Shown here: positions 966-62,081 of the stretch, piece by piece
Layout: every line of letters starts with the position of its first letter
How positions within the stretch are numbered: position 1 is the first letter of the stretch
IMG/VR virus record: IMGVR_UViG_3300009103_002187
Coordinates: 15,765 to 79,764 of that record
DNA: 64,000 nucleotides
Strand: one strand, 5' to 3'
Origin: a virus
Notes under the pieces: model-generated
What the model was told of the DNA's origin: nothing
The model's input: the letters and a program-made list of their open reading frames with translations, nothing else
Database searches by the model: none
Made by a program: the position numbers and the translations under genes

Positions 966-1445
966 TTATCCTACCTTGGAGTTTTTAAAACCGACTCCTG
1001 CAAAACCAATTGTAACTCCTTCTTCTGACCTGTTAATAGGTGCTCCGTAGTTATGCCAGTGTTGTTCACTAACACCGCCCATAGTATCAATTATTGACTG
1101 AATCTCACCTCTTATAGCCTTTCTTAGCTTTCGCTCTTGAACCCGTTGTTTATCGCTTTCAATTGTCTTCAAGATTTCACTTCTAATAGCCTTTCTCAGC
1201 TTAGCTTCCTCAAGATCAACTTCAACTTCTTCAATGTTGACATCTCCTGAGACATTAACATTGACATTGGTTCCTTCGGCTTTGTCATCTTCTTCTTTAT
1301 AAAATAGAGACTCTACGCTTGAATTCACTTGATGAGGCGCGTGTGATGAAACAGGCTCTTCAAAATGATTTTTCTCTGTTAAAAGGTCACTCTCTTTATT
1401 ATGTAAACCTGCAAGCTCTAGAAGCCTGTTGCTGTTAAATTCCAT
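966..1445 (-). CDS. putative virion/head-associated protein carrying both recurrent tags
   Basis: N-terminal RLLELAGL, duplicated LRKAIR(S/G)EI; ATG at 1445 follows GGAG; ATAATTA upstream. Confidence 0.65.
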   Translation of the reverse strand: MEFNSNRLLELAGLHNKESDLLTEKNHFEEPVSSHAPHQVNSSVESLFYKEEDDKAEGTNVNVNVSGDVNIEEVEVDLEEAKLRKAIRSEILKTIESDKQRVQERKLRKAIRGEIQSIIDTMGGVSEQHWHNYGAPINRSEEGVTIGFAGVGFKNSKVG

Positions 1446-1516
1446 TATTAGCACTCCAATCAAAATTCACAGTATAAATCTAATTATGCGCTAATTTAGT
1501 TAAGTTTTATGTTTTT

Positions 1517-2278
1517 TTAAAGTGTCTCTAAGTTAAAAGAGAACTTATCTTCTACATTTTTCCAATATCTCAGACGATCGTATAGCTTGTCAATTCTTTT
1601 TTGATATCGAACTGCCTCTCGATTTTTCATTTGTTTTAGTTTGTCAAGTTTTATCGTTCCTGGCTTCGCTGTGTCAATCCTTTCATAAATTTCTCGCATC
1701 CTAACAACAAACTTTTCAATTGAAGTTTTAATTAGTGCTTCTATCTTTTTAATTTCCAAATTATTTTTATTGATAGCTTCACCGATAATCACATTACACT
1801 TTTTCATTCCCTTATGCTTGTACATCGAGACTTTTCCTCGAGCCCCTGGAGAAATTGGTCGAAAATCATCAATGGTTAGATCTTCAAAGTGTAGAACAGC
1901 AAATGATTTAAAAGTTTCATCAGCAATCACGTATAGATAGTCAAGTGATTTCTTTTGTGCAAGAGTATCTCGATCAGTCTGAAAAGAAATTGATCCATTG
2001 GAATTTCGACTAGTTAATTTGCACTCTACTTCTCTATTGATGTCTTTGATAAAAATATCGGGTTCACCGGTTCTTCCATCCGAAACAACATCTTTAAATT
2101 CTCTACAGAGCTCTTGGCCAAAATATTTCTCTTGTGCCTGAGAAAGAATTACATTTCTTCGTCCAAGGTTTCCCAATAGATCAATCTGATGTGATTGGCA
2201 AAGATGGAGAATATCATCGTGAAATTTGCCCATGTGTTTTAGGGCACTAATTGACATGTCTCTGGTAATATAACTCAT
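1517..2278 (-). CDS. putative PD-(D/E)XK (restriction-endonuclease-like) nuclease
   Basis: QE...GEPDIFI...EVECK motif pattern; AAGGAGG RBS. Confidence 0.6.
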   Translation of the reverse strand: MSYITRDMSISALKHMGKFHDDILHLCQSHQIDLLGNLGRRNVILSQAQEKYFGQELCREFKDVVSDGRTGEPDIFIKDINREVECKLTSRNSNGSISFQTDRDTLAQKKSLDYLYVIADETFKSFAVLHFEDLTIDDFRPISPGARGKVSMYKHKGMKKCNVIIGEAINKNNLEIKKIEALIKTSIEKFVVRMREIYERIDTAKPGTIKLDKLKQMKNREAVRYQKRIDKLYDRLRYWKNVEDKFSFNLETL

Positions 2279-2317
2279 AACGCCTCCTTGAATTATAACA
2301 CGTCAGTATTGTTTTTA

Positions 2318-2686
2318 TCAGGAATCTTCTGTAATAACGTTTCCACGAATTCTCTCAGTGATCTCTCTTCCCTTAATTGCTGCTGTTGTCATTGACTCTA
2401 AGCCCAATGCAGATCTCACAACATCATACACGCCTGGCTCTAAATTTTCCTTTAATACAGCCATATCTGCATACTGGTGCAAATCCATCTGAATTACAGG
2501 AACCTCCTCACCAGATAAGCCAGGCTCATATTCGCCTGTCTCTCTTGACTCAAAAATATAAAGAAGGGACGGCATTGCCTCGCCTTCTGGAACGGGAACA
2601 AATGGTAACTGAGATGTTGCGCTACCATCACTTGACTCCTCATACATTATCTCAGGAATCCAGCTACTGCTATTATTAAAATTCAT
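2318..2686 (-). CDS. hypothetical acidic protein
   Basis: 122-aa ORF. Confidence 0.7.
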   Translation of the reverse strand: MNFNNSSSWIPEIMYEESSDGSATSQLPFVPVPEGEAMPSLLYIFESRETGEYEPGLSGEEVPVIQMDLHQYADMAVLKENLEPGVYDVVRSALGLESMTTAAIKGREITERIRGNVITEDS

Positions 2687-2748
2687 TTTTTTTACCTGGG
2701 GTTAAAACATTAATAAACTGCAAGAAAATGATCGTTAATAGTCTTGTA

Positions 2749-5598: not shown

Positions 5599-5601
5599 AT
5601 T

Positions 5602-8163
5602 TTAAGCTTCTCTTAAAATTGATCGCACTAATCTTCTTAAAGACTCGGCTGCTTGCTCTTCTTCAGGCTGAAACTCCTCAGGCGACAGATTTTCAGGCTG
5701 GGCAACTATAGGCTCTTCAATCTCTTCTGGCACCTCTTCTGGCGTGTCATCAACAGAAATTTCTAGAGGTGCAGTGGTTGTTGCTGTTGTAAATTCAGAC
5801 TTAACAATCGACTTCCAACCTCTCATGCCAAGGATCTGCGGCCCTGTGGACTTACCGTCATTTCGTGCTTTTAAACTAAAATATGGATTTCCAGACGGTC
5901 CCACATTTGCCTTAAGCGTTGTTCCATCGGTAATCCACTCAAATTTTAAATTATCTAAAAATCCCTTCGCCCCACCGATATTTTCAAGATCAAACTTTTC
6001 AATAATCACAGTGACTTCTTCTTTGCAGAGCCAACAAACCCGAAGAACAATAATCGTCTTTGGTGTCGATGAATCCTCTCGAGTTTCTCGACGGGGTCCA
6101 GCCCCAAGGAGATCTTTAGCCCCGGGTATTTTTCCATACATATCAGACCTTATATCAAAAAACGCTGCCATGATATCATCTTTAAATACCTCAGTAAAAG
6201 GTCTTCCGCTTAAAGTCGGTGGATCATGCTTTATTTCACCTATCTCGAGCTGCTCTCCGCTTAACAATTTTGCCAAATCCTCATAGGTCGGTTTCATTGC
6301 CTCTTGATAGGCCTCCTTAGCTAGATTAAATTTTCGGAAAATTGTATCAACCTTTTTCATCAAGTCGTCGATTTTCTCCTTGACTTCAGGATCTTTGACA
6401 GTGCTTATAAGGTTTGCGTACGCTCCTTTTGGATCTTTCCAGGAAATGTACTCTTTGTCTTTACCTCTTGGTGACCTCAGTTGAGGATCTTTCTCATCAG
6501 GTGGCAATCGATTCTTTCGATAAGTGTTGGCTTCTTGCACAGGGCCGTATATAAGATTTTTGATTCGGGTGACCTCCTCCTGTTGCTCAGAAGATAATTT
6601 TTTGAATTTTTCATTATTTTCTGTATAATAAGTCACATCTAAGAATTTTGCAATTTCCTCTCTTTGCGCTCCGGATTCCATGAGTCCGTCTCTGGCAAGA
6701 GTTCCTGCGGGTCGAACAAATCTGCCATCCATTTGATTTGCATCCACAGACCCACTCTCATCTCTAAGATAATCTGTTAGCTTATCTTTCATATGCAAAT
6801 CAAAAATAATTTTCGTTGCCTGATCATAGAGATCTCTAGAATAATATCCTGAAACAGCTCCAAAAATTTTATCTTCCAACTCTTCCGGAGTGGGCTCTTC
6901 CCGTTTTAATTTCCTAATATTCCCAAATCTTCCACCCTTTACCTCCTCGTTAAATTTTACGTGAATGTCTGAAATATCAGTTGGAACATCAACCATACCC
7001 GTATCTTGACCAATAGTTGTAATTAAAGGTCTACCAAGACCTTCTCGAAAAATTGGATTCTTTGTTACAGCTGTGTAAGCTGCTCGATATAAGGCAAATA
7101 TCGTCTTCCTTTCATCGTCAGACAAGCTAGGATCTGTAAAAATATTTTCTGCGTCAGGCGTGTCTTCAAAGGTACCCGGGACAGGTAGCTCACCATTACC
7201 CCCGCGAGGACTTCCTAAAAGCGCATCCAAAACTGAAAACTCCACAAGTTTTCCAATCTTGACCCCTTCACGACCGCCTGTCATATTGGGAAAACAAGGC
7301 TTGGGAGGTCTCTTACATTTTGTATTTGCCTCTTGAATTATGCGAGAGATATATTCTCTAATCAATCTGCTTGAAGTTTTATTTAGAACCTCATTCACTT
7401 TGTCAACTGCTTTTCGAGCATTCACAGGATCTCTCTTTAGCTTTGGACCAATATAGTCCTCAAAGTCAAAAAGATAATCCCTAAATGTTGAATGTGATGC
7501 CATATAATTAAGCAGCCCCTCGAAGGTCAAGACCATGTCAGGGTGAAGATTGATATCTAGCACCTCTAGGATCTTTGCAGGATCTTCAGTTCGAACTGTT
7601 TCTCGACCCTCCATCAAAAAAGTTTGGGGGTTTCCATCAACTCGAACCTGCAAGCCTCCCGGATAAGCGATCGCATATTTCACCTTGCGTTCAGTGGTGC
7701 ATGCTGCGTCACTCTTCTTCCGAGCGATCAGATTGATCAAGGCATTTCGATATGCTCCTTGAATCCCATTTTCATCAACACCTGCGAAAAGCCACGATGT
7801 GTGGTTAATATTTTCACCAGGCATGATGTCAACCTGAACATACTTTCCCGTGGGGCCTTCTGATAGATTAAAGATGGGATACTTCACGTGAATATTACTT
7901 CCCATCTTTCGAACATTTTCAGAACCCAGCGCTGTTGAAAGAAATCTTTCTAGTCTCTCCTTAAAGACAGGCTTGGAATCTCCCATGGGAATTTCAACAG
8001 TGATATCAGCATCTCTGCTGACCGTCTTCTTCCCTGTGCTTCCAATCATCCTATAGGTGTTAATACCTGCAGGGTGAAGATGATTTCTCAAAAAATGATC
8101 TAGCGTTGGCTTACAATCCTCTCGATTAATTCCAGAGGTTCCAACAAATATCGCGCCACCCAT
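5602..8163 (-). CDS. multidomain protein: N-terminal Pol-beta-like nucleotidyltransferase plus unknown C-terminal region
   Basis: IGSTGKK..SRDADI and YVQVDIM; internal LIREYISRIIQEA and terminal LRRLVRSILREA tags. Confidence 0.65.
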   Translation of the reverse strand: MGGAIFVGTSGINREDCKPTLDHFLRNHLHPAGINTYRMIGSTGKKTVSRDADITVEIPMGDSKPVFKERLERFLSTALGSENVRKMGSNIHVKYPIFNLSEGPTGKYVQVDIMPGENINHTSWLFAGVDENGIQGAYRNALINLIARKKSDAACTTERKVKYAIAYPGGLQVRVDGNPQTFLMEGRETVRTEDPAKILEVLDINLHPDMVLTFEGLLNYMASHSTFRDYLFDFEDYIGPKLKRDPVNARKAVDKVNEVLNKTSSRLIREYISRIIQEANTKCKRPPKPCFPNMTGGREGVKIGKLVEFSVLDALLGSPRGGNGELPVPGTFEDTPDAENIFTDPSLSDDERKTIFALYRAAYTAVTKNPIFREGLGRPLITTIGQDTGMVDVPTDISDIHVKFNEEVKGGRFGNIRKLKREEPTPEELEDKIFGAVSGYYSRDLYDQATKIIFDLHMKDKLTDYLRDESGSVDANQMDGRFVRPAGTLARDGLMESGAQREEIAKFLDVTYYTENNEKFKKLSSEQQEEVTRIKNLIYGPVQEANTYRKNRLPPDEKDPQLRSPRGKDKEYISWKDPKGAYANLISTVKDPEVKEKIDDLMKKVDTIFRKFNLAKEAYQEAMKPTYEDLAKLLSGEQLEIGEIKHDPPTLSGRPFTEVFKDDIMAAFFDIRSDMYGKIPGAKDLLGAGPRRETREDSSTPKTIIVLRVCWLCKEEVTVIIEKFDLENIGGAKGFLDNLKFEWITDGTTLKANVGPSGNPYFSLKARNDGKSTGPQILGMRGWKSIVKSEFTTATTTAPLEISVDDTPEEVPEEIEEPIVAQPENLSPEEFQPEEEQAAESLRRLVRSILREA

Positions 8164-8211: not shown

Positions 8212-9453
8212 TTACACAAGAGGGACAGAAATTTTTGCTGGAGTTTTACCGTACCTAAAAAACCCAAGGAGCTTATTGATCGGTGTAAACATTCCAGTTA
8301 GCTTACGTGTCTTTCCATTCCACTTAAAGACCACGCCTTCTGTGGCAGTCTCAAAGAGTGACTCGTTGGTCGCAAGCCTGGCAAGCGCAACTCGGATGCT
8401 TTCCAATTGATCCGGATTGGCCTCAATTCGATTCTCATCATATGCTTTTCGAATCTCCTGGACCCGATCAGTGATCTCCTTGTGATTACTCGCAGTAAGA
8501 CTAAACTCCAAGTTTCGAAAGGCATAAGTACCCACGCGTTGGATGATCTCCTCTAGAGGAATGATCGCTTCAGATACCGCTCGAGATCGACGAATCTCGA
8601 CCTCTTTAAACTGCTCCCAATTCTCAGGGGGTGCAACCTTTCGAAATTTCTTGTGCAAATTTCCTCGTCCAGTAGCTAGACGAACAGCGGTATCTTTGAT
8701 CAAAGACCGAGGAATAAATCGATACCTTTGATCAGTGGAGATGTGCTGTCGAACAAGCTCAACAACCAGGTCACGAATTGTGTGTGACCGACTCAATCGA
8801 GATGATCCCAGCAAAGCATCCAAGTCGTCAGTAAGGCTTGCAATTCGATCCTCGCCTTCAATCAAAATTTTCTTTACCTGTGCTTCAGGTGTGTGATCAA
8901 TCTTAAAATTATCAATCAGAACCTTGGCAGAGCTCACAAATTCCTCATAAAGCTTCACATCAGACTCGGACCCAGGAGCAACAGCTGCAACTTGAATGAA
9001 TCGAATCGAAGGCTCATCATAAGCAATGGTATTCGAGCTAGATGGGTGCAACAAGGCGGTCTCAATGAAGATCTTGCCGTCCTGAAAGAGATCTGAATAT
9101 TCGATCGCAACTGGCATCAAGGCCCGATAAGCCTCAGTAAATGCAGTTAGAATATGGGGGTTGTCAGCATACCTCATCTGAATGTCCACGAGATCCATGC
9201 CTCCTCCGGACAACAGACGTCGATAGGAGGCCCCTTTGCTGAGAAACTTCAAATTTCCCTGATGCACCGTAAAGGTTACATTTTGACCATCCATTTTCTC
9301 ATCTAGCTGTGTAAGCGATCCAAACAATGCTGCCTCGATCATCTGATACAGCTCACCGATCGGCATGTCCAGATCCTCATAAAAGTGATAGATGTGAGCA
9401 TCCAGTTTTTCTGGAATAGGCACTGTCTTACCTTGATACATTGGAACGATCAT
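8212..9453 (-). CDS. ATP-dependent ligase-like nucleotidyltransferase (DUF6267-like)
   Basis: HIYHFYED, EKMDG (motif I KxDG), EGVV (motif IV), KLTG (motif V). Confidence 0.65.
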   Translation of the reverse strand: MIVPMYQGKTVPIPEKLDAHIYHFYEDLDMPIGELYQMIEAALFGSLTQLDEKMDGQNVTFTVHQGNLKFLSKGASYRRLLSGGGMDLVDIQMRYADNPHILTAFTEAYRALMPVAIEYSDLFQDGKIFIETALLHPSSSNTIAYDEPSIRFIQVAAVAPGSESDVKLYEEFVSSAKVLIDNFKIDHTPEAQVKKILIEGEDRIASLTDDLDALLGSSRLSRSHTIRDLVVELVRQHISTDQRYRFIPRSLIKDTAVRLATGRGNLHKKFRKVAPPENWEQFKEVEIRRSRAVSEAIIPLEEIIQRVGTYAFRNLEFSLTASNHKEITDRVQEIRKAYDENRIEANPDQLESIRVALARLATNESLFETATEGVVFKWNGKTRKLTGMFTPINKLLGFFRYGKTPAKISVPLV

Positions 9454-10259
9454 CCTACTAGAATTCCCCCTACTATCTCTCGAAGCATTGCCTCTTGTGT
9501 GTTTCTTTTTAGCATTAAATCTAGCACGCGATCCTTATCCTCAGGCGTGTAAATCGCTGGGAGAAAATCGCGGACATTCTCTCGTTCCATCGTCCGAATT
9601 TGGCTTCCTCGCACAGTGATCTTTCTAATCATGTCAGCCTTAAGCTGTGGAGATAGATAAGGCAGCTCATCTCGATAAGCTGTTAGATCGCCGGACTCGA
9701 TGGCACACTGTGCTTTTAGAAGTCGATTCATGGTCTGATCTGGCTCCTGGCCCGAGTCCGTTCGAAACTCTCTGAGAATCGAGGTTCCCTCCAGGCGAGT
9801 GTAGATCTTTAGATCCTTTCTGCCTCCGTAAATTGTTAGACCCACATGAGTCGGATCCACATTTGGGATGTTAAATTGAGAAAGAACCTCACTTTTAGTC
9901 GTCCCATGATTGACCTCATCGATTACACCCCGGACTATCTGGAAGACGTCACCGATCGGTGTTGACTTACCTATCTCACCTGTGCTCTTTTTTGGGGGCC
10001 CTGGTAGAACAGGAAATCTCGCATAGACAAGCTTGGGCAATGTCTGTTTTAGCCGATAGGTGATCCCTGTCCACCCATCATGACCTTCCCACATCTTTTC
10101 CACTGCCTTGTCAGTGATCTCCACCCCGGCACCTTTCTTTCGACCTGCACCTCCAATGATCAGGATCACACCGTCATTTTCTCGATGTGCTAGGACAAGC
10201 TTGGCAAAATGGCCAGAGTGAAAGGGCTTAAAGCCTCCAGTAAAGATTCCAATATTCAT
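9450..10259 (-). CDS. HIGH-superfamily cytidylyltransferase-like protein
   Basis: GGFKPFHSGH motif; RGSQIR resembles the SxTxxR motif. Confidence 0.75.
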   Translation of the reverse strand: MNIGIFTGGFKPFHSGHFAKLVLAHRENDGVILIIGGAGRKKGAGVEITDKAVEKMWEGHDGWTGITYRLKQTLPKLVYARFPVLPGPPKKSTGEIGKSTPIGDVFQIVRGVIDEVNHGTTKSEVLSQFNIPNVDPTHVGLTIYGGRKDLKIYTRLEGTSILREFRTDSGQEPDQTMNRLLKAQCAIESGDLTAYRDELPYLSPQLKADMIRKITVRGSQIRTMERENVRDFLPAIYTPEDKDRVLDLMLKRNTQEAMLREIVGGILVG

Positions 10260-11924: not shown

Positions 11925-12215
11925 TTAAAAATCGGATTCTTCTATCAAACCTTTATTGACGCCAGCTCTTAGTGCCTTTTTTCTAAGAAATCGAAGACTT
12001 TCTAAACATCGAGTAATCCGATCTCTTTCTTTTCTATCTCTCTGGGGTAACTGGTGTCGGATCGACTTCAACTCTGTGATAATCTTATCATAATCATCTA
12101 CGTGTGCAGAAGAACCAAATTCCACCTCTGAGCCTTCAAAGGTATGATATCTTCGCTCTCTAGACTCATTAATAACACTCTGAATCAGAGTTCTCAAATC
12201 TTTTTTCGATAACAT
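11925..12215 (-). CDS. small tag-bearing hypothetical protein
   Basis: MLSKKDLRTLIQSVINES; ATAATTA at 12235-12241. Confidence 0.7.
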   Translation of the reverse strand: MLSKKDLRTLIQSVINESRERRYHTFEGSEVEFGSSAHVDDYDKIITELKSIRHQLPQRDRKERDRITRCLESLRFLRKKALRAGVNKGLIEESDF

Positions 12216-12828: not shown

Positions 12829-13542
12829 TTATGATCTTAAGATTGACAGCTCTCTCCGAACAGCTTCTTTCTGCTGGGACTCTCCCACCTTAATCGGAAC
12901 TGGTGGAGAGGTATCTTCTTTTCCCGGGCTCTTTGAAGCTGCCTTTTTTGTAGGTGCTGACTTACTTTTAGCAACCTTCTTCTCTCTCTTCTTGGGATCA
13001 GGTGCTGAGACCTTTGTCTGGGATGTCATCTCAATTCGTCCAGGTTTGTCATCGGGTTGGGGAACAGAATTGCCATCTGCACCTGCTGTCACAATATTCT
13101 TAATTGAATTTAAAAACTTGTAAAGTGCAATTCTCTCAGGCTCATCCATGTCTTCATAATACTCGATTAACTCCATCTTAATATCAGAATCTTTCAATGA
13201 TCGCCCTGATCGGATATCATTGATTAGATCACGAATATCATTAAACTTAATCTCCTCGGGCATGTTATCAACAGGCTTCTGTTCCGGAGATGCTTCTTGT
13301 TTCTCAGGCTCAGGAGATGCCTGTTCAACATCCTCTTCGCGAACATCTGACTCTGACTCCCGATGAGGGCTGTCAACTTGGCCAGAAATCTTTTTTGACA
13401 TCGCCATTTGATCTTGACGTGCAGATGTGTAATCATCTTCAGGAACGTCAATGGCACTTTTTGCCCTAGAAACAGACTCCTCAGCAATTAATCTGAGAAA
13501 AGTCTCGAGATTTCGCTTAGAAGTAATTTTTATCTTTTTCAT
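12829..13542 (-). CDS. tag-bearing hypothetical (putative head) protein
   Basis: MKKIKITSKRNLETFLRLIAEE; terminal EAVRRELSIL. Confidence 0.7.
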   Translation of the reverse strand: MKKIKITSKRNLETFLRLIAEESVSRAKSAIDVPEDDYTSARQDQMAMSKKISGQVDSPHRESESDVREEDVEQASPEPEKQEASPEQKPVDNMPEEIKFNDIRDLINDIRSGRSLKDSDIKMELIEYYEDMDEPERIALYKFLNSIKNIVTAGADGNSVPQPDDKPGRIEMTSQTKVSAPDPKKREKKVAKSKSAPTKKAASKSPGKEDTSPPVPIKVGESQQKEAVRRELSILRS

Positions 13543-14150: not shown

Positions 14151-14577
14151 GCTCTTTCCTTTTATTCAAAATTAATTTTCTAGTTTGAATTACATCACTA
14201 TAAATTTGATCAACAGATTTTGAGTATTCTAAATCTAGCTCAGTAACCTCATCTAAATCGTGTGTATACACCTCGACCCTAACAACATCTGAGTCAATTT
14301 GCAAAAATCCGTGGTGATCAGTCTCATCTTGATGCTCAAGAACAAATGCAACAAACTTACGAAGATCTTTGTAAAATTTAAACTTAAAAGATCTTCTAAT
14401 CCTATTGGGTGACTCTAACATTTCCCATTTGGACTCTCCAACCTGTAAAGGCAGGCCGTTATCTACTTCTTCTTTAGAATATGCACCGAAAGTCTTAAGT
14501 ACTATCTCAGAAGAATCTGATGATTCAAATAAACCGTTATTCTTGAATATTCTTGATACTGTTCTATTCTTAAGCAT
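14140..14577 (-). CDS. phhB: pterin-4-alpha-carbinolamine dehydratase-like protein
   Basis: W...I.RSFKF..Y....FV, DHH, YTHD and VTELD motifs. Confidence 0.8.
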   Translation of the reverse strand: MLKNRTVSRIFKNNGLFESSDSSEIVLKTFGAYSKEEVDNGLPLQVGESKWEMLESPNRIRRSFKFKFYKDLRKFVAFVLEHQDETDHHGFLQIDSDVVRVEVYTHDLDEVTELDLEYSKSVDQIYSDVIQTRKLILNKRKEREF

Positions 14578-15952
14578 TCTTAGCGCCGCGCCCTTGTTTT
14601 GCGTATAACTTGTCAAGCTTATTACCAAATGCGCCTTTCAAGATTTTAGCAACAACTTGATCTGGTATCAGATGATATTGATCAATCACATCTTGCAAGA
14701 TCAAGCCTTGTATGGGATTGTTTGTGCTGTGAGGTCGCTTGACTCTCTTTCCATGCTTTTTTGGGCTGGCAAATGTGTGCCACTTTGCCTGAAGATGCCT
14801 TGCATCCTTTATCTCCTTATCGTACATCTCCTTGTAGAGGCCTTGCGCAAACAGCTTAAAAGCAGCCAAATAAGCTGAATGATCTGGGCCTTTCCCCACC
14901 TTGAGATCGCTTAATCCTGTCTTGCCGCCATCGGGTAATACTTCCTCTACAGCTGGGTTTATTCCTATCACAAGATCTCTAAAGATCGTAAATGTTACAG
15001 CCTCAATATTATGCGCAGTTCCAAATTTTTCCATATCATATACAATAGGTAGCTTTTTACCAGGTGGGGGCAGATCTCCCAAGAGCTTTAGGTCGTCGTA
15101 GATAATATTTCGAACATTATTGAGACCCGTTCCAATCTCTTGCGCAATGAGCTTAATTAAATCTCCTAAATTCATTCTTCTAACAATGTCTGGCGTTAGC
15201 TTTTCAGCGCCCAGCTCAGCAGACACATGATTAGCCAAGGCTACCCCTGTCGCTTCCTCAACAGGGTTTAGATCGTATTCATGACCGGGTGGCAAGTCTT
15301 CTATATTACCCCTGGCCTCACCACTGTCCCCTTCAGCAGCTCCTGGGTCATCAAGATCAGACAAGTCTTCTGACCCTGGCGTGTATGATCCAAGCGCCTC
15401 CAAGGCTTCAGGATCCTGCTCTGCTGCCATGATCTCTTCATGGGATGGGGCACCCCATTCATCCTCGTCTTTTTTCTTGTCTTTCCATCGATGTTGAGAT
15501 CCCATGGGCTCGTCACCCCACCTTGCACCGGGTCGCCATTCTGGATCACCTGGCTGTGGAATCATCCCAGGGCCGACTTCGATCAAAATCTTTCGAATTG
15601 CTGCTCGAAGATGGGATTCATTTTGATTCTTTTGTCTGGCTCTTTTTCTAGCATTTCTTGCCACTCGTTTTACCTGTCGCTTAACCTTGTCAGACTCATC
15701 CTCAGGTACCTGAGATAAAACAGATATTAAAGATTGAACTAGCTCATCTTCACTAGACAGCGGGTCACCTCCCAAACTGGGCTTCTCTTTCGCCTTTTTA
15801 AGGGGTTGAACATCCATAGTTTCATCAGGTTGCACGGGTGGTTCATTTATGACTCTCGGCGCTGATTTGTCACCGGTACTTTTTTCCTTCCCCGCGTCCA
15901 AAAATTCCTGAATAATTTGGCGTACGGCACTCTTTTTAACAACTACTTTCAT
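14570..15952 (-). CDS. tag-bearing hypothetical (putative head) protein
   Basis: MKVVVKKSAVRQIIQE and NESHLRAAIRKILIE; ATATTTA at 15987-15993. Confidence 0.7.
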   Translation of the reverse strand: MKVVVKKSAVRQIIQEFLDAGKEKSTGDKSAPRVINEPPVQPDETMDVQPLKKAKEKPSLGGDPLSSEDELVQSLISVLSQVPEDESDKVKRQVKRVARNARKRARQKNQNESHLRAAIRKILIEVGPGMIPQPGDPEWRPGARWGDEPMGSQHRWKDKKKDEDEWGAPSHEEIMAAEQDPEALEALGSYTPGSEDLSDLDDPGAAEGDSGEARGNIEDLPPGHEYDLNPVEEATGVALANHVSAELGAEKLTPDIVRRMNLGDLIKLIAQEIGTGLNNVRNIIYDDLKLLGDLPPPGKKLPIVYDMEKFGTAHNIEAVTFTIFRDLVIGINPAVEEVLPDGGKTGLSDLKVGKGPDHSAYLAAFKLFAQGLYKEMYDKEIKDARHLQAKWHTFASPKKHGKRVKRPHSTNNPIQGLILQDVIDQYHLIPDQVVAKILKGAFGNKLDKLYAKQGRGAKNA

Positions 15953-16022
15953 TATAGCACCCTCAAGATAAATAACTTTCAATCTATAAATATTGAGGGA
16001 AAATTATTAATACAATCAATCA

Positions 16023-16544: not shown

Positions 16545-17606
16545 TCAATCTTGGAGCAATCCTGCAAGTCGTTGCCATCGCTCCATGATTAAATTGTCAG
16601 ACTTTTTCGTCCCCTCTTCAACTGGGTCGAAAGGAAGCGACACATTAAACTTACCTGATTCAAGACCTGTATAAATTGCTGACTTAGTCGCATCCTGATC
16701 TGGGCCCATAGTCTTGTGATCAACCTGGGGCATATCAGCTCGAGCAGGTGCTCCTGAGTTAGAAGGAATATCGCTTAAATTGCCTGCAACCTTTTTCGAA
16801 ATTGCATCGATAACAGTTTCGTGGTCAGCACCCATCTCAAATCCTGCCCACTCAGCAACTTTCTGACTCTGTGCTGCTGCTGATAAAAACTCATTATTTA
16901 ACAATGCACCCGGTGCGTTTGGATCAGTCTGATTTCCAACATTATCCTTGATCATCTGCTCGATGGTCTCAGAAGACGCTCCCAAAATATTCGTGGGAAA
17001 AGGATCGCTCTCTGACGGTTGGGGTAGATCTGGCGCTTTATGCGCAGCAACTGCTAGCTGTGTCGCAGCCAGCTTTTCCTCCGTGCCGCCTGGAAGATCC
17101 AAATCTCGAGCTACTATCTTTCCGCCACCCTCTTTTCCTAAGATTCCCCAAACACCGGACCACCGGTGATGACCATCCATAACCTCATTGCCTGATACTG
17201 AAATCTCTCCATGTCCCATCTTTTTAGTCAATAAATTCTCAAGCGCACCAATGCTAGAAAGGGGAAAGCTTACAGACTTCATTAGGTCAATCTCTCGCTG
17301 TGTAGGAATAAGCCCGCCAACGTCTATAGAGGAAGCTCCCCCAATATCAACGACATCATCTTCAACCTTATTGTCATAATCACCCTGTAGAACTGTTTTT
17401 AACAAATCGTCATCTGCAGTATTTACCAGACTTCTCACAGCAGCAGGTCCTGCCTTGACAGCAGCAGCCACCTGATCATCAAGCTCTTCAGCAGTTTCTG
17501 CCTCAAAAATTAGAGAAGTAATCGAAGAGACCCTTGTTTCTCCAGCAAGCTCTTCCTGGATTAGCCTTCGAATTCCAGCTCTTAACTTTTTCTCACTAAA
17601 ACCCAC
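16545..17606 (-). CDS. ParB/Srx-like domain protein with both tags
   Basis: LIPTQREI...MDGHHRW; LRAGIRRLIQEE; ERWQRLAGL. Confidence 0.7.
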   Translation of the reverse strand: MGFSEKKLRAGIRRLIQEELAGETRVSSITSLIFEAETAEELDDQVAAAVKAGPAAVRSLVNTADDDLLKTVLQGDYDNKVEDDVVDIGGASSIDVGGLIPTQREIDLMKSVSFPLSSIGALENLLTKKMGHGEISVSGNEVMDGHHRWSGVWGILGKEGGGKIVARDLDLPGGTEEKLAATQLAVAAHKAPDLPQPSESDPFPTNILGASSETIEQMIKDNVGNQTDPNAPGALLNNEFLSAAAQSQKVAEWAGFEMGADHETVIDAISKKVAGNLSDIPSNSGAPARADMPQVDHKTMGPDQDATKSAIYTGLESGKFNVSLPFDPVEEGTKKSDNLIMERWQRLAGLLQD

Positions 17607-17613: not shown

Positions 17614-18780
17614 TCACCCCTTTAAGGTTCCAGCAATCTTCTGCCATCTCTCAAAGATAAATCGATCGGAAGTTTTATTTTCTAGAGACTCATCTTTTTT
17701 TGGAACGCCTTTCTGCCCTCTGCCAAACGCATTTGCGACTGATACCAACAATGGGATCAATGTTTCTGCATCGCCCTTGACACTGTGTACCCCTGAATGA
17801 GTCAAAGAACCGCCTGTCGCAATTCTGGCTCCTGACCATCGGTGGTGCCCGTCAAGAATTTCATTACCTGAAGTTACAAACGCTCCGCCCATATCAGATA
17901 GATCATTAACTTTCCTACCATGCAAAAATGCAAACAGGAGTGATTTTCCAGCTAAAATATTACTTTGAGTCGGCTCCATCTGCCCATTATTCAAAGTTCC
18001 GTTAATTCCCACCTCAATTTGATCGTCAGCTCGAGTTCCATCAAGCTGCCCCTTTGTAAGAAAAGCCAAGGCTTTTCCTACCAACTCTTGTCGAGTTGCT
18101 GCAGTCTGCTTTTCACCTCTCAAAGGTGCGCCAGGCATTTGTGAATTTCCAAACCGAGGAAATCTATCTTCAAAAATTGCAGAAGCTAACCTAGAATAAC
18201 CTTCTTCTTTTTTGTCAGGCTCATTGGGAACTTCCCCCTTTTCAAAAGCTGCCCTATCTTCATCAGAAAGATCACTAAACCATTTTTCAAAGTTAGCTTG
18301 ATTACCAGCATCTGGCGATTCAATATCAACTGTATACTCTCCTCCCGGAGAAAGTGCATCTGCTACCTCATCGGCATCACCTCCCTCGAGAGCGGGCATA
18401 TCTTTTTTAGCCGGAGCATTGCTTGGTAACTTGCTAGAAACATCCTTAATGCGCTTCTCTAGAGTAGATTGACCTATTTCATTTGCCCAAGCTGCAAGAC
18501 CTTTTGGGCCACCAGCTTTTTCAAATGCACCTGGTGACCATCTCGTTGCAGTCGCGATGGCCTGAACTAATGGTGCATTCTCATCGCCTGAGGTTAGCTG
18601 CTTCCAAGTGTCAGGATGCTTTAGATCTTTAATATTGGTCATCGTGCTCACCGCATTATAACCACCGGGATTTGGCTCTGGTTCAGCTGGATTATCTTTA
18701 CCTTCCGCCTCAGCTAAAAAACGATATGGATCATACGAATTTCGAACAAGTCTCTCAAAAAGATCTCGACGTTGGGTCAT
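17614..18780 (-). CDS. ParB/Srx-like domain protein (paralog of the adjacent gene)
   Basis: MEPTQSNI...ILDGHHRW; ERWQKIAGT; ATATTTA at 18817-18823. Confidence 0.7.
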   Translation of the reverse strand: MTQRRDLFERLVRNSYDPYRFLAEAEGKDNPAEPEPNPGGYNAVSTMTNIKDLKHPDTWKQLTSGDENAPLVQAIATATRWSPGAFEKAGGPKGLAAWANEIGQSTLEKRIKDVSSKLPSNAPAKKDMPALEGGDADEVADALSPGGEYTVDIESPDAGNQANFEKWFSDLSDEDRAAFEKGEVPNEPDKKEEGYSRLASAIFEDRFPRFGNSQMPGAPLRGEKQTAATRQELVGKALAFLTKGQLDGTRADDQIEVGINGTLNNGQMEPTQSNILAGKSLLFAFLHGRKVNDLSDMGGAFVTSGNEILDGHHRWSGARIATGGSLTHSGVHSVKGDAETLIPLLVSVANAFGRGQKGVPKKDESLENKTSDRFIFERWQKIAGTLKG

Positions 18781-20059: not shown

Positions 20060-20347
20060 TTAAGAAGAGAAAGGACTCTCCTCTTCAAGTATATTAAACA
20101 GTTTTTCAGCATCTGTTTCAGATAAGCTAGCCTTTGTCTTATTTCGCTTTTTTTCGATAAGCTCATCTAACATATCCAATAAACTTGAATCTTCCAATCC
20201 AACCCTTAGTGCAAGCTCCTCAAATGTCTCTTGCATTGACAAGCCCCGCTTAAATAATACAGTTCTAAAAGCGGAATGTGTTTCCTTGTTTAGGTTGATA
20301 TGAACACTCTTCTTCTGAACAAAATCAGAATAAGACTTATCAGACAC
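20060..20347 (-). CDS. putative ribbon-helix-helix DNA-binding protein
   Basis: KKSVHINL beta strand followed by two helices (GLSMQE). Confidence 0.5.
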   Translation of the reverse strand: MSDKSYSDFVQKKSVHINLNKETHSAFRTVLFKRGLSMQETFEELALRVGLEDSSLLDMLDELIEKKRNKTKASLSETDAEKLFNILEEESPFSS

Positions 20348-21055: not shown

Positions 21056-21436
21056 TTATCCTTGTTTCTGAGTTCCAGCTTTCATTTTTAAATAAACTTG
21101 TTTCATGGCATTATCAACATCTTCTGGCTTGCGCTGGGCAAGATTTTTTGCATCAAATAGAGCTAAAATCTCTTCAATCATCTTTCGAAATACTGGAAAC
21201 TCTGAAGAAAGTAGGCCTTTAGAAGCAACAATCTGATCTTTGGCCCACATCCCAACTTCCATTCGTGCTGCCATCTTCTCCTTATCTTCCCCTTGACCGG
21301 CTTCTGCAGGTGCTTCAATTCCCTCTGTGGATCCACCGCCTTCAACGTCAGACCCAATGTCTTCTTCGGAGTCTTCATGCAACCTTGTCATCTCTTCTCG
21401 AATAATTCTCTTAAGCTGTCCTTTTGTAACTCTCAT
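21056..21436 (-). CDS. tag-bearing (putative head) protein
   Basis: MRVTKGQLKRIIREEMTRLHE. Confidence 0.7.
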   Translation of the reverse strand: MRVTKGQLKRIIREEMTRLHEDSEEDIGSDVEGGGSTEGIEAPAEAGQGEDKEKMAARMEVGMWAKDQIVASKGLLSSEFPVFRKMIEEILALFDAKNLAQRKPEDVDNAMKQVYLKMKAGTQKQG

Positions 21437-48992: not shown

Positions 48993-49661
48993 TTAATCAA
49001 TTCTTTGAAGAGATCCGTCTTCCAAAACTTTAGCAACATCAAAAGAGAAGTTTTCGCCCTGAGCATTTTTTAATTCTCTGTAGCGTCTCAAAAAACTGTG
49101 CATTGAATTAGCGTTAGGTGTTGAATCATCAAAAAAACTCACACGATTAATATTTGGATTATCTAAAAGAAGGCGCTCAACAACACTAACTTTCGCTTCG
49201 GGATTTGAAGACCCTACTCCTACAACTTCAATCTTGGAAGCGTCAATCCCAATCTTATTCAAAAATAAAGAAATACCTTCTTCTGATGCAGGCCTCCTTG
49301 CTGTCAAAACCATTACGATTCTAATGTCTGCGTTTTGAACATTTAAAAAACTTCTCAAAATATTAGTTACGATAGGATTTTCTATAGCTTTATCGATATC
49401 AACGTCATCAAATTCATCAAACCCATAATGGTAACCCATCTCTGATTCTTCTGATGTGATATGATCTTCATGAGTTTTGTCACCAAACTCTTCTGATGAC
49501 ATTGATCTAACAACTGTGCCTTCTTTGTCCAAAATCTCGATCATTTCTGCAGTATATGCAATAGTATCATCAAAATCTAAAATTCTTAAAGACTCCACCT
49601 CTGTCGATTCAGTTAATCGACTGTTCCATTCTCTTAGAATTTCTCTCATTGAATTTTTCAT
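48993..49661 (-). CDS. HAD-family phosphatase with N-terminal tag (paralog of 30878..31804)
   Basis: LDFDDTI, LTAR, K, FFDD; MREILREWNSRLTE. Confidence 0.75.
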   Translation of the reverse strand: MKNSMREILREWNSRLTESTEVESLRILDFDDTIAYTAEMIEILDKEGTVVRSMSSEEFGDKTHEDHITSEESEMGYHYGFDEFDDVDIDKAIENPIVTNILRSFLNVQNADIRIVMVLTARRPASEEGISLFLNKIGIDASKIEVVGVGSSNPEAKVSVVERLLLDNPNINRVSFFDDSTPNANSMHSFLRRYRELKNAQGENFSFDVAKVLEDGSLQRID

Positions 49662-53505: not shown

Positions 53506-54108
53506 TTATTCAAAATCAATTTCTACATTGACTTCTATGTTAAATTTTGGAACTCGTAAATGATTGACTATTCCATGTTTTTTTGCTTCTGCAGCATCCA
53601 TAAACCAATCTGCGTGTTTCTTTGAAAAGACCTTCTTTTTAAAGTAATCATCTTTCTTTCCACAGTTTCTTGCCATCATCGTATAGATCTTTTCATCTAG
53701 ACGTTCAGCTTCCTTAACGTCTGCTTTGAGCTCTTCTATCTTTCCATACATTCCACTAGAAACATCGTGAATCATAATAGTGGCATCAGGATCTGCAAAT
53801 CTCATTCCATCTTCTCCAAAGGTCATAAGAACAGCCCCGCAAGACATCGCTTTTCCCTCTACTATTGTAGCAACTGGTATTTCTGAATGCTTGATGGCAC
53901 TTATCATCGCCATTAGGCTGTAAACTTGTCCGCCGTATGAGTCAATTATTACTGGAATTACTTTTTGCCCAGTGTTATGAGCTAAAGCCATCTGCTCTTG
54001 AAACTCTTTTGCTGACTTTTCATCAAACTTATTTACCCTTACCATTACGGGTGTTTTTCTTAGTTCAACTTCTTTAATTAAAGGTGACACTTTGCTAGTC
54101 CATTTCAT
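53506..54108 (-). CDS. clpP: ClpP-like serine protease
   Basis: IDSYGG, AMSCG, IMIH. Confidence 0.85.
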   Translation of the reverse strand: MKWTSKVSPLIKEVELRKTPVMVRVNKFDEKSAKEFQEQMALAHNTGQKVIPVIIDSYGGQVYSLMAMISAIKHSEIPVATIVEGKAMSCGAVLMTFGEDGMRFADPDATIMIHDVSSGMYGKIEELKADVKEAERLDEKIYTMMARNCGKKDDYFKKKVFSKKHADWFMDAAEAKKHGIVNHLRVPKFNIEVNVEIDFE

Positions 54109-58362: not shown

Positions 58363-58380
58363 TTCATTCCCATTTTGAAT

Positions 58381-60509: not shown

Positions 60510-60561
60510 GTTCTATCCTCTTAGAGAATAATACATCATTAAGACAAATCTGTTCAAGCAT

Positions 60562-60596
60562 AAAAATAAAAAGCAGGAGCGAAATGCTCCTGCTTT
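60562..60596 (-). terminator. rho-independent terminator after the SSB gene
   Basis: aaagcaggagc/gctcctgcttt stem with T-tract on the - strand. Confidence 0.85.
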
Positions 60597-60621
60597 AAAT
60601 GTTGTCCACTGTCAATGGTGT

Positions 60622-61407
60622 CTAGATATCTTCTAGATCTGCAAATGCATCATCCAGGCTCTTATAAGACTTTCCGTTGGTCGTCGTGGAAGATGTAGTT
60701 GTTTCCGTAGCACTATTTGTACTCGTAGTAGATCCTGTCTCATCAGGAAAATCCGGACCATTGATCCACTCATTAACAATCTTTTCAAGCTCTTCATAAG
60801 GCTTGCATGTATAGATCGCGTCAAGATCAGGAGTATTGCTGAGCCAAGTTTGAGTCTGATCAGAATCACTAGAAAGCTTTGAAGAAGAACCCCTCGGACG
60901 CACATCAGTCATTGCCCACTGACGTCCTGGCGGCTTAACACAGGTCACCTTAATATCACGACCAGTAAGAGGATCGGTGATGTCTCCATAGTCTTCATCA
61001 AGCATCAAGTTAAGAATAGACTGATAAACAGTTTTTCCAAATGCCCAAAGACGAACTCCTCGATCTTCCTCACCTCGAACGATAACAGGGGCATAGGTTC
61101 TCATCTTTGGATAGAGCTTCTTTGCAAGCTCATAAGACTCCTTGCTTCCATCATCTCGAAGCTTAGTGATCAGCTCCTGAATAGGATCTGGGTTTCCAAA
61201 CTGGTAGGGAGCCAAAAGGCCCGGATTATTTCCAATATTATAATAGAAATAACGCTCCTTAAAAGGTTGCCCGTCATTATCAGGAAAAGCGAGAAGACGA
61301 ATCGTATACTCCTCTCCTTCCTTGGGACGCCACATCACGTTTGAGCGGCGGTTTTGGCCAGAAAGCTGGCCTAGCTTGCGACGAATTGCATCAAAATCAA
61401 TAGCCAT
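60622..61407 (-). CDS. T4 gp32-like single-stranded DNA-binding protein
   Basis: WRP...IRLL, GVRLW.FGK, YGDITDP..GRD; acidic tail DDAFADLEDI. Confidence 0.8.
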   Translation of the reverse strand: MAIDFDAIRRKLGQLSGQNRRSNVMWRPKEGEEYTIRLLAFPDNDGQPFKERYFYYNIGNNPGLLAPYQFGNPDPIQELITKLRDDGSKESYELAKKLYPKMRTYAPVIVRGEEDRGVRLWAFGKTVYQSILNLMLDEDYGDITDPLTGRDIKVTCVKPPGRQWAMTDVRPRGSSSKLSSDSDQTQTWLSNTPDLDAIYTCKPYEELEKIVNEWINGPDFPDETGSTTSTNSATETTTSSTTTNGKSYKSLDDAFADLEDI

Positions 61408-61486
61408 TTTTTAATCTCCAATATTTAATGGTTAATGCTTACTGTAACTGTTAATTGATAGTTTTTATTATCTTTAGTTACGAATC

Positions 61487-61514
61487 ATTCTACACACTCG
61501 TAACTCAATGTTCA
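61487..61514 (-). promoter_or_regulatory. putative promoter TGAACA-N16-TAGAAT for the SSB gene
   Basis: recurring motif. Confidence 0.6.
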
Positions 61515-62081
61515 CTTATTTTTTCTTGCTTTTTTTCTTTTTTTTCTTGTCTTTTTTGTCTTTCTTTTCTTTTTTGTCACTCCGGTTGCAAGTTTTGCAT
61601 TTCCGAAACTTCTAGCTGTTGGACCCCAGTGTGGGGCAGGGCCTTTGACCGGCGCCATATAACCAAAATTTCCAATACCACCAGCACCACCAACAGAACT
61701 ATATTCTTCTAAATCAGGATCTTCTTCAATCTCATCTTCATCAAGAATCTTCTCAGAATCCTCAGACGTCTTTCGGTCCTCAGCGAGAATGAGATGAATT
61801 AATTCGCGTAAAGATTCCATCACAGGTTCTTCATCTTCATCTTCTTCTGGACAGTCATCAAAATATGGATCTGGGCAGCCCGCTAAAGGCGTTCCCAGAC
61901 GCATAGAGAAGCTGACATCTGCTGAAGAGCTAGGGCCTCCACTTAATCCTGACATTGTAGGCGGGATCGGAGTGCTACCTAACCGATCCCGGGGCACCAT
62001 TGCACCGCCGGCCGGAACTGCTCTTCCCATACCAGACGGACGGTTATTATAATTTGACCTGTATCTACGAGTTGGCATCAA
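61512..62081 (-). CDS. low-complexity tag-bearing protein with a very basic tail
   Basis: MESLRELIHLILAE; KKKRKTKKTRKKRKKARKNK; ATAGTTA at 62085-62091. Confidence 0.65.
   Translation of the reverse strand: MMPTRRYRSNYNNRPSGMGRAVPAGGAMVPRDRLGSTPIPPTMSGLSGGPSSSADVSFSMRLGTPLAGCPDPYFDDCPEEDEDEEPVMESLRELIHLILAEDRKTSEDSEKILDEDEIEEDPDLEEYSSVGGAGGIGNFGYMAPVKGPAPHWGPTARSFGNAKLATGVTKKKRKTKKTRKKRKKARKNK

Follow-up and report, generated by a model that had tools for sequence, protein, structure and literature searches.

Why do so many otherwise dissimilar proteins of a single marine phage begin with nearly the same short peptide? The question is raised by a stretch of 64,000 nucleotides (hereafter the window; positions 15,765 to 79,764 of IMG/VR record IMGVR_UViG_3300009103_002187), in which about 10% of the genes carry such a tag. 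The source phage is an uncultured giant (jumbo) T4-like marine phage, putatively of the 'Far-T4' type, a clade of T4-like phages described by Roux et al. 2015 (PMC4360716), and the contig covers about 27% of its genome. The consensus of the tag, M-K-(I/L)-T-x-x-x-L-R-x-(I/L)-I-x-E-E, is secure at the N-terminus of seven window proteins; five more begin with weaker forms, giving about 12 plausible N-terminal carriers in all, and internal or C-terminal variants occur in three to four proteins. A preliminary description of this DNA had placed an 'LRxLIxEE' tag on about 20 proteins; the motif and its excess over chance are real, but the count was too high. As far as its residues can tell, the tag is a portable N-terminal amphipathic helix which is occasionally internal.

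All carriers in the window lie on the minus strand, and their starts and translations were checked. The tag MKLTRSYLRNLIIEE (40786..40830), which scores 21.9 bits with a matrix trained only on the relative G005, opens a 181-aa ORFan (40285..40830) that matches no Pfam or PHROG family and has only three close homologue clusters. Four other canonical tags were recognized by both the scan matrix and an N-terminus test. MKITHDKLRSLILEE (31760..31804) begins a 308-aa HAD-like protein (30878..31804), a paralogue of 48993..49661 (BLASTP E=4e-4), whose opposite end bears the C-terminal label EYWSKIAGL (30881..30907). MRVTKGQLKRIIREE (21392..21436) begins a 126-aa acidic ORFan (21056..21436), and MKLSRHTLRGLINEE (21007..21051) a 234-aa very acidic ORFan (20347..21051), the orthologues of which adjoin the superoxide dismutase (SOD) gene in relatives G001, G004 and G005 and keep a tag-like start. 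MKIKRNDLRDLINDA (39142..39186) heads the 203-aa ORFan 38575..39186; it has no L/I-x-E site because Asp replaces the usual Glu, and this is counted against the role as a cleaved propeptide that is considered below. In T4, Asp at position 10 of the CTS peptide blocks processing, not targeting (PMC9026906).

The excess over chance was measured with a scan matrix (PSSM) trained only on the tags of G005. Applied to the window genome, it detected eight proteins at 12 bits or more, as compared with 0.41 in shuffled proteomes, and four at 16 bits or more, as compared with 0.03. Seven of the eight matches of at least 12 bits are N-terminal and start at residues 2–6, and across 23 loci in four genomes a start codon directly precedes nearly every match of at least 16 bits. 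In the N-terminus-specific test, which took internal 25-mers of this proteome as its background, p was <=5e-5 for five tags and 8e-4 for two, which bears out the starts proposed earlier at 21051, 21436, 31804, 40830 and 39186 (canonical) and at 17606 and 15952 (variant). For the five canonical tags this test is not independent, because its matrix contains them, and the G005-trained scan is the only independent evidence. The carriers had been called unrelated, and rightly so: in an all-versus-all BLASTP comparison similarity is limited to the first 20–38 residues, except in two paralogue pairs. The tag had also been said to be missing from core enzymes, which holds for DnaE, RNR, RecA, the helicase, gp32 and the glyoxylate enzymes, with the Fe/Mn-SOD homologue as a weak exception. 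Many synonymous codons are used for the conserved residues (four for L8, five for R9), and when window tags are compared, 26 of 60 identical residues are encoded by different codons; therefore, selection acts on the peptide.

Variant tags begin two further proteins, namely KKLRAGIRRLIQEE (17550..17606, core LRAGIRRLIQEE; p=8e-4) on a 353-aa ParB/Srx-like protein (16545..17606) and MKVVVKKSAVRQIIQE (15905..15952, containing AVRQIIQE), recognized by the N-terminus test, on a 460-aa ORFan (14570..15952). Weaker forms are ...NLETFLRLIAEE (13477..13542, FLRLIAEE) on a 237-aa acidic/basic ORFan (12829..13542), MLSKKDLRTLIQSVINE (12165..12215, core DLRTLIQSVINE) on a 96-aa protein (11925..12215), the tag-like extension MDSLKNGDIRDLVRES (22098..22145, DIRDLVRES; p about 0.01) of the SOD homologue 21447..22145, and MKNSMREILREWNSRLTE (49608..49661, ILREWNSRLTE), a possible alternative label on the second HAD-like protein (48993..49661). 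These four, also listed in the preliminary description, are near chance level on the matrix, but G001, G004 and G005 keep the first three in their orthologues: the N-termini of 12829..13542 and 11925..12215 are kept in all three relatives (the latter starting with MSSEKELRELVREVLVE in G005), and the SOD orthologues have a helix-like extension in 3/3, which reads MMIRNSDISRIINES in G001. The weak label at 49661, not detected by the tag matrix, resembles an xLLFESWRxFLNE (ESWRxFLNE) type of N-terminus found among homologues of the 353-aa carrier. The enzyme names first attached to the carriers stand for SOD (a Pfam Sod_Fe_C domain at residues 126–220) and for CCA (a PolyA_pol/CCA head domain in a 952-aa protein), whereas 'HAD' and 'ParB-like' derive from short motifs and weak fold matches; the remaining N-tagged proteins match no Pfam or PHROG family. 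SOD and HAD-like enzymes are unexpected as virion cargo, and they too are counted against a propeptide role.

Copies of the helix also occur inside proteins. The variant [LI]R[AKRS][AG]IR is found five times, as compared with 0.018 expected: twice in 966..1463, at residue 125 of 14570..15982, at residue 296 of 35720..38578, and at the N-terminus of 16545..17606. The two copies in 966..1463 read LRKAIRSEIL and LRKAIRGEIQ (1098..1199), and this protein, if read from an inner Met at 1445, would start with an LAG-type label, MEFNSNRLLELAGL (1404..1445). The copy in the 460-aa ORFan is LRAAIRKILIE (15578..15610), and that in the 952-aa protein 35720..38578 is MNESSIRAAIREEL (37667..37708), about 30 residues before the PolyA_pol/CCA head domain. 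Internal copies had therefore been reported correctly for these three proteins, but in 9450..10259 and 61512..62081, which had been named as well, nothing reaches 5 bits on the tag matrix. Two copies had been claimed for the 853-aa protein 5602..8163; only one weak site is present, the C-terminal helix LRRLVRSILREA (5605..5640), and its significance is weak because it is a single occurrence.

A second, C-terminal label accompanies the tag. The pattern (E/D)RWxx(L/I)AG, also seen as (E/D/N)RWxx(L/I)AG(I/L), ends four window proteins 0–4 residues from the stop, and a label of this RWxxLAG type ends two N-tagged proteins of G001. In the window it appears, besides the EYWSKIAGL end given above, as ERWQRLAGLLQD (16548..16583) on the 353-aa protein, as ERWQKIAGTLKG (17617..17652) on a 388-aa paralogue (17614..18780), and as DRWSLLAGLSEES (22623..22661) on a 920-aa ORFan (22620..25382). 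Close to the N-terminus of the latter lies a tag-like SLITEAQLDELINE (25236..25289). The same type of label is the end of a scaffold-like protein encoded just upstream of the gp23-like major capsid protein (MCP) in G001, G004, G006 and G009. The name 'scaffold' is given here from gene order and composition; the protein has no PHROG match, and hhalign against T4 or P-HM2 gp22 gave a probability below 1%. Through the C-terminal label, carriers probably have another route to co-assembly with the shell or scaffold.

The 353-aa carrier illustrates how both termini are exchanged. Among its 116 homologue clusters, the same core is found with the tag (33 clusters), without it, or with one of four other N-terminal peptides, and 65 of the 116 have the RWxxLAG-type end; wherever a canonical tag can be paired with a C-terminal class, it goes with RWxxLAG (32/32). 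The termini are thus swapped as modules. In the AlphaFold2 model (mean pLDDT 89) the tag and the C-terminal label are predicted as separate helices (residues 4–21 and 334–346), each joined by a low-confidence linker to a compact, well-folded core. The best fold matches, over residues 85–300, have Z 3.5–4.6 and are to the serine kinase SerK, PadC, Atu1540, sulfiredoxin and KorB; a Foldseek search with the carrier returned nothing at E<=1e-3. The DGHHRWS motif is invariant.

The contig itself, being about 27% complete, contains no protease, scaffold or capsid gene, that is, no head module, and the tag is bridged to head genes by relatives whose DnaE is 57–79% identical to that of the window phage. 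Peptidase_S77, the T4 gp21-type prohead protease, is encoded in G001–G004. It is also found in five of nine further tag-bearing contigs that were retrieved with an unrelated metagenomic two-tag protein (G006, G007, G009, G013 and G014, including a 5.9-kb fragment, a 19.6-kb fragment and one complete genome of 189.6 kb), as well as in Flavobacterium phage immuto, a cultured relative and the only cultured tag carrier found. In several lineages the protease gene is immediately followed by tagged genes, which take up the interval to the MCP gene: in G014 a tagged gene starts 2 nt past the protease stop, in G009 eight small tagged genes separate the protease from the scaffold-like and MCP genes, and in G001, G004 and G006 the first gene after the protease encodes a protein with a tag-like N-terminus. 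The MCPs of G001 and G006 best match those of an uncultured 484-kb phage, phage immuto, Microcystis phage Mel-JY01 and Rhodothermus phage RM378, followed by cyanophage gp23 at about 33% identity. S77 is not the only protease found together with the tags, because a CLP_protease homologue (ClpP), encoded in the window at 53506..54108, also accompanies them in four of five relatives, the complete genome included.

The ending of the tag would suit an S77-type protease. An L/I/V-x-E sequence ends at residue 14 in 23 of 28 aligned tags, and 24 of the 28 have at least two such sites in their first 30 residues, most with the second about 7 residues after the first. T4 gp21 cuts after L/I-x-E, and the T4 CTS, MKTYQEFIAE (PMC9026906, PMC8442874), ends in I-A-E just as the tag of 13542 does. 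Like the CTS of IPI/II/III and Alt, the tag is a short N-terminal peptide which begins with M-K, ends with phi-I-x-E, and sits on diverse, otherwise unrelated, fast-evolving proteins in genomes with an S77 protease; as in T4, the phage's own core or scaffold proteins have similar N-termini, and those of T4 gp22, gp67, gp21 and gp24 and of P-HM2 gp22 are the same kind of phi-phi-x-E peptide. Unlike the CTS, however, the tag is usually longer (14–15 residues plus a second site), is far more conserved across lineages, may be internal or repeated within one protein, is accompanied by a separate C-terminal label, and has many more carriers per genome. There is no detectable sequence similarity between the two, only the common pattern M-K...phi-I-x-E, and the N-termini of T4 gp67, gp68, gp21, gp22, gp23 and gp24 score no more than 0.7 bits on the tag matrix.

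We consider that the tag is probably a head-targeting propeptide of the T4 CTS type, cut by a gp21-type protease. During prohead assembly, the helix would attach diverse phage proteins to the scaffolding core; the Peptidase_S77 prohead protease would then remove it by cutting behind residue 14, the Glu that closes (L/I)-x-E, often with a second cut about 7 residues later, and the freed proteins would remain in the head, from which they could enter the host with the DNA. Core binding, cleavage, packaging and ejection are steps that we infer. The portable, T4-like address label ending in I/L-x-E suggested in the preliminary description is favored by the S77 linkage, the recurrent cleavage-type site, the modularity and the C-terminal label, but disfavored by the lack of similarity to the T4 CTS and by a contig without head genes.

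Other systems resemble this arrangement in part. The phages phiKZ, 201phi2-1 and SPN3US are likewise jumbo phages, with removable N-terminal propeptides and redundant x-x-E sites on many head-internal proteins, and the SPN3US paralogues gp53 and gp54 have identical N-termini. Their propeptides differ in being mostly at least 100 residues long and in sharing no single motif, and the phiKZ-type cut, made by a diverged gp21 homologue, follows S/A-x-E, whereas the site here is L/I/V-x-E, as in T4. Encapsulin cargo-loading peptides are short terminal peptides that address unrelated enzymes to the interior of an HK97-fold shell, and phage scaffolding proteins such as that of P22 bind coat through their C-terminus. 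The presence of RWxxLAG on both cargo candidates and a scaffold-like protein would fit this logic; to our knowledge, encapsulin peptides have other sequences and are not cleaved. The Dar system of phage P1 also loads head-internal anti-defence proteins during head assembly and ejects them into the host (PMC12810830). There, loading requires specific partner proteins (DarA/Hdf-dependent packaging of DarB and others), the head protease belongs to another family, and the cargos are not known to share one short tag.

Alternatively, the helix might be a general docking or oligomerization element that directs its carriers to another hub (a factory for replication or metabolism, for instance, the GroEL of the phage, or a target in the host) or to each other by coiled-coil bundling, with neither packaging nor cleavage. 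In the window, tagged genes do have replication and metabolic genes as neighbors, and SOD and HAD-like enzymes are among the carriers; L8, I11, I12 and L16 form a generic heptad-like amphipathic helix, also seen in EF-hand/S100 and repeat proteins, and proteins with two or three copies would suit avidity. We nevertheless regard this as unlikely, since it leaves unexplained the regular (L/I)-x-E ending at a fixed distance, the coupling of tagged genes to the prohead protease gene with the filling of the protease-to-MCP interval, and the co-occurring C-terminal labels that copy the end of a scaffold-like protein. Far less probable is an N-terminal degron, or a signal for regulated proteolysis, through which the phage ClpP and a host unfoldase would set when early proteins are degraded. 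Substrates are known to be addressed to ClpXP by peptide signals at their N-terminus, and the ClpP homologue accompanies the tag as described above, but ClpP is not specific for (L/I)-x-E, linkage of the tags is to the S77 gene and not to the ClpP gene, the internal copies and the scaffold-type C-terminal label would be unexplained, and the tag does not seem to fit the published N-motifs of ClpX. Chance, compositional bias, paralogue ancestry or a translation enhancer at gene starts can scarcely account for the recurrence: highly expressed phage genes often have Lys as their second codon and an A-rich start, and several weaker cases are at chance level, but the independently trained scan, the BLASTP comparison, the codon diversity and the metagenomic abundance of the tag all speak against them.

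That abundance amounts to 3,243 protein clusters at E<=1e-3 among 1.84 billion metagenomic proteins, the top 150 profile matches containing 137 N-terminal copies, and proteins with 2–3 copies are common. The sequence pattern alone is not specific, because a similar helix forms a repeat in unrelated membrane proteins and occurs in EF-hand/S100 helices. A literature search found no paper printing the motif, which is apparently undescribed in the papers covered by that search. Being frequent and sharply defined as well, it therefore offers a simple handle for cataloguing candidate ejected proteins. If it is indeed a head-targeting propeptide, the tag would mark capsid-borne proteins that abundant uncultured marine phages deliver with their DNA, a class to which anti-defence and takeover factors of T4, P1 and phiKZ-like phages belong and which is otherwise invisible in metagenomes; it would also be a candidate packaging tag for engineering non-model phages. 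More tentatively, and with rather more doubt than belief, we suggest that Far-T4-type marine phages may use a modular address code, in which a helix at the N-terminus (MKITxxQLRxIIxEE or an alternative specific to the lineage) and a scaffold-mimicking C-terminal peptide (RWxxLAG) together bring dozens of enzymes into each virion, among them SOD-, HAD-, ParB- and CCA-type proteins and multi-tag polyproteins cut apart by the prohead protease. Were this true, sequence alone would suffice to predict which proteins thousands of uncultured phages inject. The exchange of labels between lineages around the same core would provide a natural system for the co-evolution of cargo addressing, scaffold and protease. 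Among homologues of the 353-aa carrier, some bear a 10-residue variant, MLKLKDLLxE, in which the length and the position of the site are the same as in the T4 CTS.

Near-identical starting 15-mers open five minus-strand ORFs of the window (MKLSRHTLRGLINEE, MRVTKGQLKRIIREE, MKITHDKLRSLILEE, MKLTRSYLRNLIIEE and MKIKRNDLRDLINDA), and clear variants of this tag occur in two further ORFs (KKLRAGIRRLIQEE and KKSAVRQIIQE). To avoid circularity, a position matrix was built from eight tags of the related contig G005 alone, with the initiator Met excluded, and the window genome was then scanned with it. Eight proteins scored at least 12 bits, compared with 0.41 in 200 shuffled proteomes, and four scored at least 16 bits, compared with 0.03; seven of the eight matches at 12 bits or more were N-terminal. 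The seven N-terminal tags also differed from random internal 25-mers of the same proteome (p<=8e-4), but the matrix of that test contains the five canonical tags, and therefore only the G005-matrix scan is independent for those five. All-versus-all BLASTP restricts the similarity between carriers to their first 20–38 residues. Leucine 8 of the tag is written in four codons and arginine 9 in five, 26 of the 60 residues that are identical across the five canonical tags of the window have differing codons, and selection is on the peptide. The tag and most of its carriers fall in no Pfam or PHROGs family, and the T4-type late promoter (TATAAAT) had only scattered matches upstream of tagged genes, from which no inference on timing is drawn.

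The preliminary description had counted about 20 tagged proteins; the recurrence is real, but the number was too high, with seven secure cases, about 12 plausible ones and a few internal variants. The weaker N-terminal cases (13542, 12215, the SOD at 22145, and 49661) have matrix scores near chance. The N-termini of the first three are kept in the orthologues of three relatives, and the start of 49661 resembles another label type, seen among the homologues of the 353-aa carrier. As for the proposed internal copies, a variant form of the core, [LI]R[AKRS][AG]IR, is present in five places where 0.018 are expected and accounts for those in 966..1463 (two), 14570..15982 and 35720..38578, whereas no tag was found in 9450..10259 or 61512..62081, which had also been cited as carriers. 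In the 952-aa protein at 35720..38578 (minus), a PolyA_pol/CCA head domain (residues 335-459) follows directly on the internal variant (37667-37708), and this protein may be a fusion or a polyprotein cut at the tag.

The window, bases 15765-79764 of a single virus contig of 79,764 bases with an estimated completeness of ~27% (CheckV), has nearly all of its genes on the minus strand. Those identified include a family-C DNA polymerase (DnaE), a DnaB-like helicase, a 5'-3' exonuclease, RecA and a gp32-like protein, as well as ClpP, a SOD homologue, a pterin dehydratase and the PolyA_pol/CCA-type domain; head genes and Peptidase_S77 were absent from this ~27% of the genome. The DnaE query retrieved 26 IMG/VR loci at 57-79% identity, on contigs of up to 176 kb with an estimated completeness of ~52%, figures that imply a jumbo genome of at least about 300 kb. 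The relatives' capsid proteins are gp23-like, with their closest matches in an uncultured 484-kb phage, Flavobacterium phage immuto, Microcystis phage Mel-JY01 and Rhodothermus phage RM378, and by these sequence matches the clade probably belongs to the 'Far-T4' neighbourhood of PMC4360716.

Four of the relatives possess Peptidase_S77, to which the gp21 prohead protease of T4 belongs. The head module of the related contig G001 runs from the large terminase through the portal, a 288-aa protein, the protease, a 171-aa protein starting MKMTRQDLKSIVKE, a 96-aa protein starting MATRLTPDTLRRLVLEE, two 177-aa proteins and a 466-aa acidic helical protein to the gp23-like major capsid protein (MCP), and this layout is repeated in G004 and G006. 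With an unrelated two-tag metagenomic protein as bait, nine further tag-bearing IMG/VR contigs were obtained. S77 is encoded on five of the nine, among them the sole complete genome (189.6 kb) and two short fragments (5.9 kb and 19.6 kb); on the 5.9-kb fragment (G014), a gene with the start MKLTKSQLKEIIREE opens 2 nt after the protease stop. G009 has eight small tagged genes in the interval from the protease to the scaffold-like and MCP genes. Among 28 aligned tags, 23 have an (L/I/V)-x-E ending at residue 14, and 24 have at least two (L/I/V)-x-E sites within 30 residues. The S77 protease of contig G014 itself (L051:2394-3008) has the C-terminus ...VTKVERIINDILRGE, a tag-like helix ending in Glu, which recalls the C-terminal self-processing reported for gp21-family proteases.

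With the same matrix, the tag was found at many gene starts of the relatives, with a start codon directly before almost every match of at least 16 bits; canonical-type copies of at least 12 bits number ~14 in G005 (82.6 kb) and 11-12 in G001 (176 kb), among others. In G005, the protein at 6881..7576 carries a tag variant at its N-terminus and ...GLAEGNKMKITRRQLRKIIKEE further in, in frame and with no stop codon between. A related-locus search found no relatives of the 234-aa carrier. The consensus of the 28 tags is MKITxxxLRxIIxEE, and their profile gave 3,243 matches at E<=1e-3 among 1.84 billion representative proteins. The best 150 of these, which rank at the top because of multiple copies per protein, hold 2-12 copies each, 137 of the copies being N-terminal, and all ten matches looked up are unnamed metagenomic proteins (GOS, ENA, JGI, Logan). 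A few top matches (P0004, P0005, P0007, P0015 and P0031) belong to a separate family that the profile catches as well, made up of large, probably membrane-bound proteins in which (V/P)LTSDDLRSIIREEL follows acidic stretches and is repeated 7-12 times, and which match S-100/EF-hand weakly; a membrane-spanning region opens P0004, whose sequence was read throughout. The helix pattern alone is thus not specific. Among cultured phages, gene 190 of Flavobacterium phage immuto (vB_FspM_immuto, immuto35A_190) begins MKKSQLRQIIKEALD. A tblastn search of 50,697 cultured or deposited phage records with the two-tag metagenomic protein returned only the uncultured 484-kb LR756508 (E about 2), short tags being below the reach of BLAST.

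The 466-aa protein of G001 (85841-87241, L035:5841-7241), a putative scaffold by synteny and composition, and its counterparts in G004, G006 and G009 share the C-terminal peptide (D/N)R(W/F)xx(L)AGI, which finishes 1-3 residues short of the stop. At a distance of 0-4 residues from the stop, this peptide also closes two N-tagged G001 proteins and four window proteins on the minus strand: 16545..17606 (label 16548-16583), 17614..18780 (17617-17652), 22620..25382 (22623-22661) and 30878..31804 (30881-30907). The peptide (E/D/N)RWxx(L/I)AG(I/L) may serve as a second address label, in imitation of the scaffold. The hhalign comparison of the scaffold-like alignment with gp22 of T4 and of cyanophage P-HM2 was not significant, and the predicted complex of scaffold-like protein and tag scored 0.00, which is no answer and evidence neither way. 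In phage immuto, the acidic, scaffold-like protein encoded just ahead of the capsid gene (L076:18725-19966, MW353176.1 immuto35A_203) is annotated as 'DNA polymerase phi-like protein', probably a low-complexity artefact.

A homologue search with the 353-aa carrier gave 116 clusters, whose ends are interchangeable around a conserved core in which DGHHRWS is invariant. The N-terminal types are the canonical tag (33), no label, xLLFESWRxFLNE, xAARLQKLAGILKE and a 10-residue MLKLKDLLxE, and the C-terminal types are ERWQRLAGLLKG (65), LDxMLKESIIKIK, PPFVKDGIIKLK and IVxEEIKR. For 32 canonical tags a C-terminal class could be assigned, and in every case it is RWxxLAG, an ending that just one protein with a different labelled N-terminal type shares. 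In other lineages, xLLFESWRxFLNE, MLKLKDLLxE or YYKKFQKFLTE stands in place of the canonical tag on the same core domain. The LAG-type peptide also occurs at N-termini, as MEFNSNRLLELAGL, MKQxLIxEAARLQKLAGILKE and ...FRRMQKLAGII (window 1404-1445, minus; clusters P0211, P0214, P0246 and P0248; immuto35A_187 in L076:4774-5238). Foldseek against the PDB gave no clear fold for the 353-aa carrier, its core having weak ParB/Srx-type structural matches (Z 3.5-4.6). The AlphaFold2 model (mean pLDDT 89.2) has a compact core at residues 35-320, with the N-tag as helix 4-21 and the C-label as helix 334-346, each on a low-confidence linker.

In T4, gp21 cuts after L/I-x-E, and a 10-residue capsid-targeting sequence (CTS), MKTYQEFIAE, directs internal proteins to the scaffolding core before being cleaved off (PMC9026906, PMC8442874, PMC3012670). 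A peptide of the same kind begins T4 gp22 (MLKEQLIAE), gp67, gp21 and gp24, as well as gp22 of P-HM2 (...KFKKVIAE). In function the tag would resemble the T4 CTS, to which it is not homologous in sequence; the tag is longer and more conserved, can be internal or repeated, and has a C-terminal label as its partner. The 10-residue MLKLKDLLxE of the homologues matches the CTS in length and site position. The best reading, which we consider fairly probable, is that the tag belongs to a head-targeting system resembling that of the T4 CTS: the N-terminal helix would address proteins to the prohead core, the S77 protease would then remove it, and the C-terminal label would imitate the scaffold's own end. 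Against this reading, the window's contig is without head genes, SOD and HAD-like enzymes are unexpected as cargo, and ClpP co-occurs with the tags as well, also in the tag-bearing relatives. That the tag is a general docking helix to some other hub seems rather unlikely, as this could not account for the linkage to the S77 protease gene or the fixed x-E ending, and that it is a ClpP degron seems very improbable despite that co-occurrence. Chance is ruled out by the excess of 8 over 0.41 with the independent matrix and by the number of profile matches, paralogy by the confinement of BLASTP similarity to the carriers' starts, and a nucleotide-level signal by the varied synonymous codons at conserved residues.

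The principle of head-targeting propeptides is already known from T4 and phiKZ-like phages. A literature search with six printed motif forms, and with 'capsid targeting' combined with Far-T4, cyanophage and pelagiphage, found no description of the tag, and the Far-T4 paper (PMC4360716) makes no mention of a motif, a protease or a scaffold. By the literature searched, the tag itself, its wide occurrence in marine viromes, the forms with several copies, the scaffold-mimicking C-terminal label and the lineage-wise swapping of labels round one core appear to be undescribed.

A ClpP homologue is kept across the phage clade (window 53506-54108, minus; G001 120121-120612; G004 59552-60040; G006 81172-81585 and 91037-91453; G007 79623-80144), and the complete 189.6-kb genome has two copies, one with an internal TAA. 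The ORFs 16545-17606 and 17614-18780 (minus) lie next to each other and are paralogues (BLASTP E=1e-10) from a widespread viral family; the C-terminal label is present in both copies and the N-terminal tag in the downstream copy, 16545-17606, only.
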